A stretch of DNA of 64,000 nucleotides from an uncultured Gammaproteobacteria bacterium (GCA_964383495.1 CAYLHG010000002.1:94137-158136); one strand, 5' to 3'; shown: positions 30,778 through 35,413, counted from the stretch's first letter. Notes: generated by a model not told the origin, from the sequence alone. Made by a program: numbers and translations.

Positions 30778-31686
30778 TTAATTTGAGAGCTGCTCAGCCA
30801 ACCATGTCAAAGAGTATTGGACTGCTTCGTCAGAAACTTCATGGCCCATGCCTTTCACACGATGATAAGTGATAGGCGCTCCTGCTTTGGTTGCTTTTTC
30901 AACAAAAACATCAGTGGAAGGCGTGATGCTATCTTCATCACCCACGACAACCAATAAGGGTGTCTCCATTTTTTGATAATAATACGGGGGTTGTTCATAA
31001 GCGTCTGCATGATAGAGATACGTCATCCCTCCCAACCACTTATCAGTCGAAGGATTTTTCTTAATATCCTGCACAAGCAGTTCGTATTCTTTTTTATTTT
31101 TTGGAATATCATTATCAACAGATTGATCATGAGCACGTTGGTATTCATAGAATTGCCAGAATTGCTCATCCCAAAGCCAATCAACTGCACCAATCCAATT
31201 GATTGTTGCTAGCGTACGTTGTGGATGCAATAACATTAACTGCGTTGCTAATGCACCTCCTTCTGAGCCGCCTAAAAATACAAACGTTCCATCCCACCCT
31301 TGGGGCGGATGTTGCTCTAAATACGCAATAACACGCTGATGATCTGCCAAACGTTGACTGCGCGTATAATGCTGCCAAAAAGCAGGCTCATCAATACACT
31401 CACCCTTAATACCCCATTGATCTACCGTTAATAAAGCGAAACCCATCTCTACAAAAGGATTTCCTACCGCCGTGTGGGAATGCACAACACTCGTCAAATG
31501 TCCCTGTGAAGAAGAGCCTTCTAGCAAAATAAGAATGGGGAAAGAAGGCGTAGAAGGTTCTGACAAATAATAAGTAATCGCGGGCGAACCCGCTGCCTCA
31601 CGCGGTACCGTAAATGTATCATATCCTAACACCGCGCTTGTGTAAGAAAGCGATAAACTAACTAAAACACTTAGAGAAAATCGCAT
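30778..31686 (-). CDS. Secreted alpha/beta hydrolase with an S9 (prolyl-oligopeptidase-type) serine peptidase-like catalytic domain.
   Basis: Signal peptide MRFSLSVLVSLSLSYTSAVLG. Nucleophile elbow GGSEGG, acid VVVGDEDSI and His GMGHEV in alpha/beta-hydrolase order. GGAG SD present. Ends 16 nt after the ABC gene upstream. Confidence 0.7.
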   Translation of the reverse strand: MRFSLSVLVSLSLSYTSAVLGYDTFTVPREAAGSPAITYYLSEPSTPSFPILILLEGSSSQGHLTSVVHSHTAVGNPFVEMGFALLTVDQWGIKGECIDEPAFWQHYTRSQRLADHQRVIAYLEQHPPQGWDGTFVFLGGSEGGALATQLMLLHPQRTLATINWIGAVDWLWDEQFWQFYEYQRAHDQSVDNDIPKNKKEYELLVQDIKKNPSTDKWLGGMTYLYHADAYEQPPYYYQKMETPLLVVVGDEDSITPSTDVFVEKATKAGAPITYHRVKGMGHEVSDEAVQYSLTWLAEQLSN

Positions 31687-31702
31687 GAAACACTCCACAA
31701 AA

Positions 31703-33727
31703 TTACGCTTTCAATGTAAACGACGTTCGTTGGGCTTTTAAAAATCCGTTGAAATGACTAGTTTTATTGTCTGTTAATTCCGTATAACTACCTGACTCTA
31801 AAATAGTTGCCCCCCCTCTTGACGCTCCTTCTTGCTGCGCAGGATTTCTTCCTAAAAAGTATACCTTATCTACAGCTGTGATAGTTTCTAAGTTATGCGT
31901 AATCACCACGACAGCCGCATTATTATTTCTGGCCACTTGACTTAAGTCTCTGATTAAAGTACTGGCTACAATGGGGTCTAGCCCAGCTGTTAACTCATCA
32001 AAAACATAAAGTTTGGCTTTACGCAGCAACGCTCTTGCAATTCCAATGCGCTGCCGCTCCCCGCCTGATAATCGACCTGCATATAATACTTTTGCTTCAG
32101 CAGGTGCCTCTTGTGGAAGCCGAAGGTTGGCTAGTCCAACTTCGTCAATAACACTATCCATTAGCTCTCGCGTATAGGAGGTAAGATTCGGATAGCTGAT
32201 ATTATAATAAATGTCTCGCATAAAAATGTCTGTATTCTGCAAGACCATCATGCCATGCTTTCCCATAGTATCACGATCGATAGGTTGCGCTTCGCCATTA
32301 ATATGAAACTTAACCGAACCGCTTGTTACCGGATAAAGCCCCATGATTAACTTCGCAATGGTCGATTTACCACAACCGCTTGCTCCTACAATTGCAATAC
32401 ATTCTCCCGATGAAACCGTTAAGTTGACGTCATTAAGGACTAATTTCCGTTGGGGAGCATTCGGCTCAAATGAAAAACCCAACTTGCTCAAGGTGAGCGT
32501 AACCATATCATCCCGGGAGTCGATTGTACTCGAGCTTTTTAGGCTGCTCGAGATAGAAGAAGCTACGTCCCCAAATTGCACGTGATTTTCTACTACTGCG
32601 GGGAGCGAAGGCCTGGTAGCAACATTACCGGACCTCACAAACTTTAAAACCGTATTAACGATAGATTCAGCTTCGGTGATACCTTCAAACGCTCCAGAGC
32701 TTTTTGATAAAGGTCCAGACAATAACACTAGCATATTAATGATACTTAATAGTTGATTAGGGGTTACCGGCTGGTCCTCTTTAGTTGTTTCATCAACATA
32801 AAAATAACCACCTATCGTAAGAGAGCCATAAAAAATAAATTGCCTTAAAGCATCGGAAATCGCTTTTGTCTTTAAGAAATTACTTTTAGCTTTATTCATC
32901 TCTAGTATAACAACGTCTAGCTTGCTTTTTTCTTCCTGCTCGCCTTTAAAAGCTTTAATGCTCACAATATTATCAAAATCTTGTTGAAGCTGCTTGGCTA
33001 CCTCTATATAGGCTTTATTCATTCTCACAGAAGCCTCAGAGATATGCCTGTTTATAAAAAAAGCTACAATAGGAAGCACTGGCACATAAATAAAAGTATA
33101 CGCAAGCCTACTACTAAATGTGCTTGATATCACTGCTAGCAAACAACTTAGCTCGAGCAGTGATGCATGCAATAAAAACATCTCTTTGGTAATCTTTGAT
33201 ATATGCGGTTGAAGAACTTGCTGCACCTCGGGGAATGAATAACCAGATCCATTTTTTTTAACACTATGCGAAATTAAACTGGCATTGTTAACTTTATCCA
33301 TATAATCAGACAGCACTTGAGCCGTCGTCAACTGCAATCCACGGTCCATCATACTATCTGCCATGGCATTACAAAATTGCCCTATATATAGACAAAGAAT
33401 GTAAAAGCCTGCCAGCTGGTATAACGCCGTTTGATTTGTTAATATCGCTACATCAACAACACAATTAGGGTTCTCTTCGCTAGAGTCAGAACTATCCCAA
33501 CATTCGACACTTACCTCTACATACTTTTTCCCCATTAAACCAGAAACGACAATAGCGCCACTGTTTGCTCCCATTGAAACCAAACGTAAAACAGATGCAA
33601 GCCCGTAATATCCTCCTCCATTTCTCATCGAGTGGGTGAGAAGATACCAAGTATCATTATAAACTTGCTTTATTTTCCCTAATAAATTCCCAGCGCCTTG
33701 CCATGCATTGTTAAAAAAATTAGCCAC
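31703..33727 (-). CDS. ABC exporter, fused permease and ATPase (type I exporter half-transporter).
   Basis: Walker A GASGCGKST, signature LSGGERQRIGIARAL and Walker B LYVFDE. An N-terminal 6-TM exporter domain. GTG start with a GAGGT SD, 11 nt after the rSAM stop. Confidence 0.8.
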   Translation of the reverse strand: MANFFNNAWQGAGNLLGKIKQVYNDTWYLLTHSMRNGGGYYGLASVLRLVSMGANSGAIVVSGLMGKKYVEVSVECWDSSDSSEENPNCVVDVAILTNQTALYQLAGFYILCLYIGQFCNAMADSMMDRGLQLTTAQVLSDYMDKVNNASLISHSVKKNGSGYSFPEVQQVLQPHISKITKEMFLLHASLLELSCLLAVISSTFSSRLAYTFIYVPVLPIVAFFINRHISEASVRMNKAYIEVAKQLQQDFDNIVSIKAFKGEQEEKSKLDVVILEMNKAKSNFLKTKAISDALRQFIFYGSLTIGGYFYVDETTKEDQPVTPNQLLSIINMLVLLSGPLSKSSGAFEGITEAESIVNTVLKFVRSGNVATRPSLPAVVENHVQFGDVASSISSSLKSSSTIDSRDDMVTLTLSKLGFSFEPNAPQRKLVLNDVNLTVSSGECIAIVGASGCGKSTIAKLIMGLYPVTSGSVKFHINGEAQPIDRDTMGKHGMMVLQNTDIFMRDIYYNISYPNLTSYTRELMDSVIDEVGLANLRLPQEAPAEAKVLYAGRLSGGERQRIGIARALLRKAKLYVFDELTAGLDPIVASTLIRDLSQVARNNNAAVVVITHNLETITAVDKVYFLGRNPAQQEGASRGGATILESGSYTELTDNKTSHFNGFLKAQRTSFTLKA

Positions 33728-35061: not shown

Positions 35062-35062
35062 A

Positions 35063-35413
35063 TTACTTCATATTAGGTTGAGCAGAGGGCGTATTTTGAG
35101 CAGCATCAAAATTATAAGTCCATTGGAAATACCATTGAGGATCCCCTCCATTAGCTTGTTTAGCTGCTTCAATTTCTGCGCCACCGTCTTTTACCGCTTT
35201 CGATAAGAGCTCAAAGCTCAAACTATCTGTTGTCTTACTGCTGTTACCAAAAGATACTACACTTCCTCTGTTCTCAGCGATTAATCCCGAAAAATCAGCT
35301 TTTTGAGCGAGCGCTCTGAATGCTTCAAATTGACTAGGAGTCAACCCAGCACCTAAATGTTGTTCCAATTTTGCTTGCAGTGATGCAACAGGACCTTGTA
35401 CAAGAGCTGTCAT
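35063..35413 (-). CDS. Candidate RiPP precursor peptide (116 aa, Cys-free, aromatic-rich C-terminal core).
   Basis: GGAG SD 8 nt upstream of the ATG. No Cys. C-terminus GGDPQWYFQWTYNFDAAQNTPSAQPNMK. Translationally coupled to the rSAM gene. The assignment is inference from context. Confidence 0.5.
   Translation of the reverse strand: MTALVQGPVASLQAKLEQHLGAGLTPSQFEAFRALAQKADFSGLIAENRGSVVSFGNSSKTTDSLSFELLSKAVKDGGAEIEAAKQANGGDPQWYFQWTYNFDAAQNTPSAQPNMK

Follow-up and report, generated by a model that had tools for sequence, protein, structure and literature searches.

Positions 30,778 to 35,413 of a 64,000-nt stretch of DNA from an uncultured Gammaproteobacteria bacterium (GCA_964383495.1, CAYLHG010000002.1:94137-158136; the whole stretch is called the window here) hold four minus-strand genes for a small peptide, an enzyme of the radical S-adenosylmethionine (rSAM) type with a SPASM domain, an ABC half-transporter and a secreted hydrolase. 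On the strength of sequence features and homologies, we think it very likely that this operon is a darobactin-like, or daropeptide-type, cluster for a peptide that is ribosomally synthesised and post-translationally modified (RiPP), working by the mechanism proposed below. A first, sequence-only reading had recognised a RiPP operon whose rSAM/SPASM maturase targets an aromatic core, free of Cys, at the C-terminus of the precursor, and both the conservation of the precursor family and models of the enzyme bear this out. The same reading had called the system new in kind, a description that no longer applies: the enzyme falls in the DarE/DarW superfamily, and the WTYNF end of the core fits WT(F/Y)RF, as published for type II daropeptides (PMC9055067). 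The cluster is an uncharacterised member of the known daropeptide family, with a two-unit, nine-residue split core, rather than a new RiPP class.

The precursor peptide and its family

The first gene of the operon (35063..35413, minus strand) encodes a precursor of 116 aa that we divide into a leader (aa 1-93), a core (WYFQWTYNF, aa 94-102; 35108..35134) and a follower of 14 aa (DAAQNTPSAQPNMK; 35066..35107). Its translation contains no cysteine and ends in ...GGDPQWYFQWTYNFDAAQNTPSAQPNMK. The leader carries the motif KLExxL...LTPSQFEAFRAL, and every Trp and Tyr of the protein falls within the core, which consists of two Trp-X-aromatic units, W94-Y-F96 and W98-T-Y100, and a closing N-F102, with 14 residues after it. 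The initial description of this open reading frame (ORF) as Cys-free and aromatic was accurate.

In the loci of all four closest rSAM homologues, the rSAM gene is immediately preceded by a small ORF without a Pfam match. These ORFs end in WTFQWTYNF, WEYTVWQYPFRP, AWQWTYKF and WTYTIWSWKF, and have the leader motif in common. For a wider view, named genomes were scanned for the rSAM enzyme and every ORF of the resulting loci was searched by hidden Markov model (HMM) and regular expression. A profile of the precursor was also run against 5.8 billion proteins, where all matches are annotated only as 'hypothetical', and exhaustively against 1.84 billion representatives, where it recovered 65 family members at E<=0.001. 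The split core W-x-F-x-W-T-Y-x-F is the most frequent among these representatives (28, out of about 62-65), followed by fused cores (17) and cores with a two-residue spacer (8). Nearly all of the 65 stop exactly at ...W-T-Y-(R/K/N/H)-F; the equivalent of F102 is invariant across the family, and a long follower is found only in the precursor of the window, the other representatives ending 0-1 residue past the final Phe. Downstream of DarE-like rSAM genes, cores of the form W[YVLT]F[SQT]WTY[RNK]F recur in Bacteroidia, Alphaproteobacteria, Cyanobacteria, Planctomycetes and further phyla. Since homologous ORFs with the same core adjoin rSAM homologues at many loci, the pairing of the small ORF with the enzyme goes beyond chance. 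The first reading had held that a lack of such conservation in related genomes would refute its proposal; neither this ground nor the other sequence-based one, firm clustering of the enzyme with sulfatase maturases, applies.

Within the DarE-like superfamily, HMM and regular-expression searches of the locus ORFs sorted the precursors into five classes. The first is canonical darobactin, WNW(S/T)K(S/G)F, of Enterobacterales, Pseudoalteromonas and Photobacterium, where its gene is upstream of that for DarE by about 4.5 kb; the second is type II, WT(F/Y)RF, in Photorhabdus. Single-unit cores, often with long followers, form the third class, in soil metagenome-assembled genomes (MAGs), and cores with the fused spacing W-x-W-x-Ar-x-F the fourth. 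The fifth has the split core W-x-F-x-W-T-Y-x-F and unites the window with Bacteroidia and Robiginitomaculum (both WYFSWTYRF) and Leptolyngbya PCC 7375 (WVFSWTYRF). In this class the named-genome loci, like many of the other MAG loci, have the precursor gene directly downstream of the rSAM gene; the window and one further locus (L005), where it lies upstream, are exceptions.

The maturase is a member of the DarE/DarW superfamily

The second gene (33739..35061, minus strand) encodes a DarE/DarW-like enzyme of 440 aa with Pfam matches to Radical_SAM and SPASM. The CxxxCxxC motif and auxiliary SPASM cysteines reported in the first reading correspond to C90-x3-C94-x2-C97 and eight auxiliary Cys, all invariant over 20 homologues. 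Compared with NCBIfam models, the enzyme scores 450.4 bits against DarW (NF041300) and 424.7 bits against DarE (NF038005), in both cases below the cutoff of 650. The scores against the models for the anaerobic sulfatase-maturating enzyme (anSME; TIGR03942, 241.8 bits, cutoff 349), DynA (NF041298, 202.9 bits, cutoff 450), AmcB (146 bits, cutoff 425) and XyeB (TIGR04496, 99.3 bits, cutoff 450) are also below their cutoffs, and YhhB gives 138 bits. As controls, the DarE of P. kayaii (Photorhabdus) reaches 751 bits against the DarE model and type II enzymes 683-685 bits (P. asymbiotica, 683). By these scores the protein is nearer to the DarE clade than to anSME or to the rSAM enzymes of other RiPPs, and triceptide/XyeB, DynA, streptide-like and mycofactocin-like assignments were rejected because they score far lower. 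Because DarW and DarE match best and yet stay under 650 bits, the sequence comparison places the enzyme inside the DarE/DarW superfamily as an equivalog of neither curated family.

The sole identical sequence among 5.8 billion proteins is the enzyme itself; the closest relative is 46% identical over its full length, with identity of up to 51% over approximately 82% of the query, and identity to characterised DarE is about 38-42%. The AlphaFold2 (AF2) model has a mean confidence (pLDDT) of 87, and its top Foldseek matches are anSMEcpe and ChlB, the latter solved with its leader peptide. Residues 1-67 form an all-helical N-terminal lobe of four helices with no β-strand. The N-terminal extension of about 90 aa had been put forward as a RiPP recognition element (RRE); we rejected an RRE in residues 1-90, as the model is all-helical there and Pfam matched no PqqD/RRE domain in the protein. 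Judged from the model, the lobe instead resembles the RRE-independent leader-binding lobe of DarE, which that enzyme requires for processing (PMC10705402).

The structural match to anSMEcpe, the closest solved structure, raises the question of whether the protein is an anSME or another SPASM enzyme outside RiPP biosynthesis, next to an unrelated small protein of 116 aa; one homologue (P0092) is annotated at source as a sulfatase-maturating enzyme, and DarE can form formylglycine on engineered Ser substrates (PMC10705402). However, the anSME model gives 242 bits where its cutoff is 349 and DarW and DarE give 450 and 425, no sulfatase gene is present among the ORFs and Pfam matches of the cluster, and the core and leader of the small ORF are kept beside homologues across phyla. 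Because the precursor is conserved, this explanation is effectively refuted and we give it almost no weight; the anSME identity was rejected on model scores and precursor conservation together.

Relation to known systems

The darobactin system (DarA, DarE and DarBCD; Photorhabdus, Yersinia and Pseudoalteromonas) has an rSAM/SPASM enzyme of the same superfamily, with a helical N-terminal lobe and no RRE. It resembles the window in its helical leader, its C-terminal Trp-X-aromatic core ending in X-Phe, the ABC export gene in the cluster and the presence of a follower, which is QEI in DarA and 14 aa long in the window. The cores differ, WYFQWTYNF having two separated units and no Lys, whereas darobactin has the fused WNWSKSF; the Lys or Arg at core position 5 of the DarE substrate W-N-W-x-(K/R)-x-F is absent from the window. 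Gene order is precursor-rSAM-ABC in the window and darA-BCD-E in darobactin, where the precursor lies about 4.5 kb upstream. The leader is 93 aa long against about 48 in darobactin, and in contrast to DarBCD the window has fused ABC half-transporters only, with no membrane-fusion protein.

In its C-terminal half the core is near that of the type II daropeptides (photorhaptin A of Photorhabdus asymbiotica; PMC9055067, PMC10849128), WTYNF being close to WT(F/Y)RF, and the Trp1-O-Cβ(Phe/Tyr3) ether of type II has been shown experimentally. The type II enzymes exceed the DarE cutoff, whereas the window enzyme is under it, and the window core adds an N-terminal W-Y-F unit, Asn in place of the penultimate Arg, and a follower. 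The DarW model is the best curated match for the window enzyme, and likewise for every one of its metagenomic relatives (375-476 bits). Its top scores fall on enzymes from Lysobacterales and Thermomonas (522-562 bits, from partial sequences), whose precursors end in W-x-W-x-W-P-F with fused spacing; our literature search found no publication describing DarW.

Dynobactin (DynA; WNSNVHSYRF), a BamA inhibitor, has a topology like that predicted for the window, with two unfused three-residue rings and then X-Phe, and family members with a two-residue spacer (e.g. WTYTIWSWKF, L009) have exactly the dynobactin spacing of 1-3, 6-8 and X-F. The dynobactin links are a Trp-Asn C-C bond and a His-Tyr N-C bond. 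The window differs in that both donors are Trp, both acceptors are aromatic and the spacer is one residue, and its enzyme and predicted chemistry are of the DarE type. Triceptides and xenorceptides (XyeB, 3-CyFE) share with the window a SPASM rSAM enzyme acting on three-residue aromatic-X-X motifs, and anSME shares the fold; unlike these systems, the window cluster has no Gly-Gly/C39 protease-transporter, HlyD or sulfatase. Xenorceptides end in W-(T/S)-(K/R)-S-F and bind BamA (bioRxiv 10.1101/2024.12.16.628070).

Predicted cross-links

A DarE homologue places a Trp1-O-Cβ(Phe3) ether on WT(F/Y)RF (PMC9055067), and the residue at position 3 sets the outcome of DarE catalysis, an aromatic residue leading to an ether via a long-lived benzylic radical and an aliphatic one to a C-C bond (PMC10705402). 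As both position-3 residues of the window core (F96 and Y100) are aromatic, these rules predict two separate Trp-O-Cβ ether rings on WYFQWTYNF, for a total shift of +27.96 Da. The nonapeptide with both ethers has a calculated [M+H]+ of 1382.548, against 1354.589 without modification; two C-C bonds would shift it by -4.03 Da, and one bond of each kind by +11.96 Da. The first reading had expected a loss of 2 Da per cross-link; the DarE rules give an ether, at +14 Da, for an aromatic position 3 (PMC10705402), so that a -2 Da screen would miss the product. A review (PMC10849128) credits Ma et al. 2023 with the prediction of 'type III orphan daropeptides' with multiple ethers.

We consider it unlikely, if well worth a thought, that the same cluster instead makes C-C cyclophane bonds in the style of triceptides or of darobactin ring B, at -2 Da apiece, or else a product of mixed topology or with three rings, joining for example Y100 and F102 as well. 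DarE is itself capable of ether as well as C-C links, and of making either independently of the other (PMC10705402), and the enzyme here, besides being under the model cutoffs, shares only about 40% identity with characterised DarE; with the nearest relative only 46-51% identical, regiochemistry is not simply transferable to it. Yet the DarE-type enzymes characterised so far give ethers at an aromatic position 3 (PMC9055067, PMC10705402), and the models of triceptide-type enzymes (XyeB at 99, YhhB at 138 and AmcB at 146 bits) score far lower. For a third ring, the family-invariant F102 could be a ring partner instead of a recognition residue. With DarE, a preceding Phe was no ring donor (PMC9055067). 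Two ether rings stay the product that we predict.

Operon structure

The junctions, read directly, agree exactly with the ORF calls and with the spacings of 1, 11 and 16 nt first described for the four minus-strand genes. An AGGAG Shine-Dalgarno (SD) sequence stands 8 nt ahead of the precursor ATG, confirming the good SD claimed for this gene; the precursor and rSAM genes are separated by a single nucleotide (TAA-t-ATG), the rSAM and ABC genes by 11 nt, with AGAGG ahead of a GTG start, and the ABC and hydrolase genes by 16 nt, with GGAG 6 nt ahead of the ATG at 31686. No terminator was found between the last two genes. Upstream of the precursor lies an AT-rich intergenic region of 209 bp (35414..35622, minus strand; 24% GC) that is the probable operon promoter, as proposed before. 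Within it, at 35540..35511, is the region's best sigma-70-like site (TTGACT-18-TATACT); the number of sigma-70-like sites equals the shuffled expectation, i.e. the chance level. A regulatory RNA in these 209 bp was considered and rejected, there being no significant RNA structure (z = -0.53) and no Rfam match. While the gaps and orientation of the four-gene set hold, a second transporter gene directly upstream on the same strand had been left out of it.

ABC transporters

The third gene (31703..33727, minus strand) encodes ABC1, a half-transporter of 674 aa with a transmembrane domain followed by a nucleotide-binding domain (NBD), Pfam matches to ABC_membrane and ABC_tran, and canonical NBD motifs. 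It is the putative exporter of the modified peptide. ABC1 has no C39 peptidase domain, and Pfam found neither Peptidase_C39 nor HlyD among the cluster proteins. ABC genes recur beside DarE-like rSAM genes, for example directly after the rSAM gene in L005; orthology of ABC1 with the ABC proteins of related loci, L005 included, was rejected because the likeness is at the NBD level only. The upstream gene (35623..37440, minus strand) encodes ABC2, an MsbA-like half-transporter of 605 aa whose 30% identity to ABC1 is confined to the NBD. It could pair with ABC1 or be an unrelated housekeeping protein, and its membership of the cluster is uncertain.

The secreted hydrolase

The last gene (30778..31686, minus strand, or to 31698 with an alternative start) encodes an α/β serine hydrolase of 302 (or 306) aa. 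Translated from the ATG at 31686, it begins with a signal-peptide-like N-terminus, MRFSLSVLVSLSLSYTSA. The nucleophile elbow reads GGSEGG, and the triad S141/D252/H282 is invariant in the family. The label 'S9-like' given to it earlier is weak: the Pfam match to Peptidase_S9 (26.5 bits) covers only the last 80 residues, Hydrolase_4 scores 30.7 bits, no β-propeller was detected, and Foldseek with the AF2 model (pLDDT 91.5) ranks feruloyl esterases and lipases first, with the catalytic domains of S9 proteins (DPP-IV) close behind at a template-modelling (TM) score of about 0.6.

The hydrolase family comprises 32 proteins, and its named members are only from Parachlamydiaceae and Simkania. Homologues at L092/L093 and L090 have neighbours encoding Ank-repeat, MORN/T4SS-AnkD-like, integrase and HicAB proteins. 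Such a distribution fits exchange of the gene among amoeba-associated intracellular bacteria. As a conserved cluster component the hydrolase was rejected, with homologues in 0/85 loci and three homologue contexts that are unrelated. The 16-nt junction, together with the fact that the sole precursor with a long follower stands in the sole locus with the hydrolase, makes it a possible candidate for trimming of the follower or leader.

A proposed pathway and its difficulties

We propose that the helical leader (KLExxL...LTPSQFEAFRAL) of the 116-aa precursor would be bound by the all-helical N-terminal lobe of the rSAM enzyme. The enzyme, whose gene is translationally coupled to that of the precursor, would abstract hydrogen from the Cβ of the third residue in every Trp-X-X unit, and the benzylic radicals would be trapped by oxygen to give two Trp-O-Cβ ether macrocycles, W94-F96 and W98-Y100. 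The 93-aa leader and 14-aa follower would then be cut off: ABC1 would carry the peptide to the periplasm, where the secreted hydrolase may trim the follower and so bare the C-terminal Tyr-X-Phe. The product would be rigid and β-strand-like, and with its aromatic-X-Phe end would most plausibly mimic the β-signal of outer membrane proteins and bind a BamA-type lateral gate. Darobactin, dynobactin and xenorceptide are all β-strand mimics at the BamA lateral gate (bioRxiv 10.1101/2024.12.16.628070). The core of the window has the β-signal-like Y100-N-F102, and since the W-T-Y-x-F C-terminus is invariant in the family, the peptide fits such a role; by this analogy a BamA-type target is plausible for the mature product.

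Several observations weigh against this scheme. The enzyme is under both 650-bit cutoffs, and identity to its nearest relative reaches only 46-51%. The penultimate core residue (position 8) is Asn, where most relatives carry Arg or Lys, and the proposed target follows from family resemblance and the C-terminal Y-x-F alone. The cluster has neither a tripartite exporter of the DarBCD type nor a membrane-fusion protein. No experimental product of a split-core member was found in a literature search that did not take in Ma et al. 2023 and the dynobactin paper, and the literature examined reports no activity for the type II peptide photorhaptin A. As for the hydrolase, tblastn found no homologue in 85 related DarE-like loci, its homologues never adjoin rSAM genes in the contexts examined (n=3), its fold is at least as close to that of esterases as to that of peptidases, and its correlation with the follower stands on one locus.

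The points on the hydrolase bear on a narrower alternative, that this gene, and possibly that of ABC2, are passengers that share only their orientation with the cluster, and that leader and follower are cut by housekeeping proteases, as for darobactin, in which unknown proteases of the host take them off, even in E. coli (PMC9055067). We rate this an even call. The absence of the hydrolase from the 85 loci favours it, as do its nearest folds, which are feruloyl esterases and lipases, the HicAB, integrase and Ank/MORN effector-like genes next to its homologues, and the fact that its named relatives are Parachlamydiaceae and Simkania; ABC2, for its part, is set apart from the precursor by the 209-bp promoter-like gap. 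Co-transcription of the hydrolase is nevertheless argued by the 16-nt gap, its own SD and the lack of a terminator after ABC1, and the only long follower of the family coincides with the only hydrolase.

Genomic context

The cluster is flanked on one side by ispE, tRNA-Gln (28077), prs, rplY and pth, and on the other by rho, a U-box protein gene, fba, pgk and tkt. Its GC content (39.1%) is inside the range of the window (37.8-44.8%), and no flanking border repeats were found around it; the tRNA-Gln was rejected as an island border, not being adjacent to the cluster. Accessory status had been argued from a conserved pth-rho interval. That argument lacks support, as pth was within 10 kb of rho in 0/80 Rho-anchored loci and the GC content is no outlier. 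With no more than 75% identity for the best Rho, and pth never nearby, Rho-anchored synteny is uninformative here; the patchy distribution of the rSAM enzyme and the hydrolase is the sole argument left for an accessory cluster. The host is a deep-branching gammaproteobacterial MAG, the conserved proteins of which are all singleton clusters.

Three further ORFs of the window were noted. A 222-aa U-box protein (39286-39954, plus strand) matches PF04564 at E=3.4e-12. The U-box is a eukaryote-like E3 ubiquitin-ligase fold, found in bacteria mainly in effectors of intracellular pathogens, and this gene suggests an intracellular, host-associated lifestyle. An ORF of 1031 aa (57614-60709, minus strand; 34.3% GC, no Pfam match) and one of 403 aa (3449-4660, minus strand; 34.4% GC), both with a GC content below that of the RiPP cluster, may be foreign or effector-like.

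Other daropeptide-like loci

Several related loci were also noted. Precursors in an Elusimicrobia MAG (L061, 2506-2715) and in P0225 have three Trp-X-aromatic units, NWTFTWDGFSWSYKFG and GWTFTWDGYSWKYKFG, and would yield a larger multi-ring product. In Vibrio profundi (L047, ~1982-2173), the gene for a DarE-like enzyme (570 bits, from a partial sequence) is immediately preceded by that for a darobactin-like precursor with WNWVYRF at its end; Tyr takes the place of the darobactin Lys, and the published rules predict a natural bis-ether fused bicycle. Four Photorhabdus loci (L025, L026, L028 and L039) each carry two tandem darA-type precursors, WNWTKRF or WNWIKKF together with WNWSKSF.

At four loci from Acidobacteriota or Rhodanobacteraceae MAGs (L010, L013, L017 and L018) a B12-binding rSAM gene precedes the DarE-like one and a Ser/Thr-kinase-O-methyltransferase fusion follows it on the opposite strand; the precursors have one VGW(Q/S)YRF unit and a follower of 25-35 aa. 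The arrangement looks like a distinct, more elaborate type of daropeptide-like cluster. Peptidases were considered as neighbours of these follower-bearing precursors and rejected, the B12-rSAM and kinase-methyltransferase fusions being found there instead. At the closest AWQWTYKF locus (L007/L008, 7322-8813) the rSAM gene is followed by genes for unknown proteins of 161 and 211 aa, and by one for a GNAT acetyltransferase, which recalls the GNAT of the published type II (pas) cluster.

Implications

The existence of such a cluster will not surprise specialists who mine DarE homologues. Darobactin-type peptides are among the few new scaffolds against Gram-negative bacteria, acting via BamA. With an effector-like U-box gene as neighbour and a hydrolase that only Parachlamydiaceae and Simkania share, the host looks like an intracellular gammaproteobacterium associated with amoebae. 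For that reason, co-resident Gram-negative bacteria or mitochondrial Sam50 come into view as possible targets; darobactin A binds Sam50 at nanomolar affinity once given access (PMC12728192). On the most ambitious reading, the operon would make a new scaffold of the bamabactins (cyclophane RiPPs that bind the lateral gate of BamA), a nine-residue peptide with two unfused Trp-O-Cβ ether rings. It would be made as an inactive pro-peptide capped by its follower and activated only after export, when a dedicated secreted serine hydrolase bares the C-terminal Tyr-Asn-Phe, with co-resident Gram-negatives or the Sam50 of the host as target. We regard that full combination as a long shot.

Our literature search, which did not take in Ma et al. 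2023, found no experimentally characterised topology with two separate ethers. The cluster is compact, with a precursor and one enzyme, and is directly testable by co-expression. If the follower and the hydrolase are linked, the latter could be the first dedicated trimming enzyme for a family whose proteases are unknown, and the precursor family as a whole, with about 60 representatives in many phyla, points to the formation of two separate ether macrocycles by a DarE-like enzyme.

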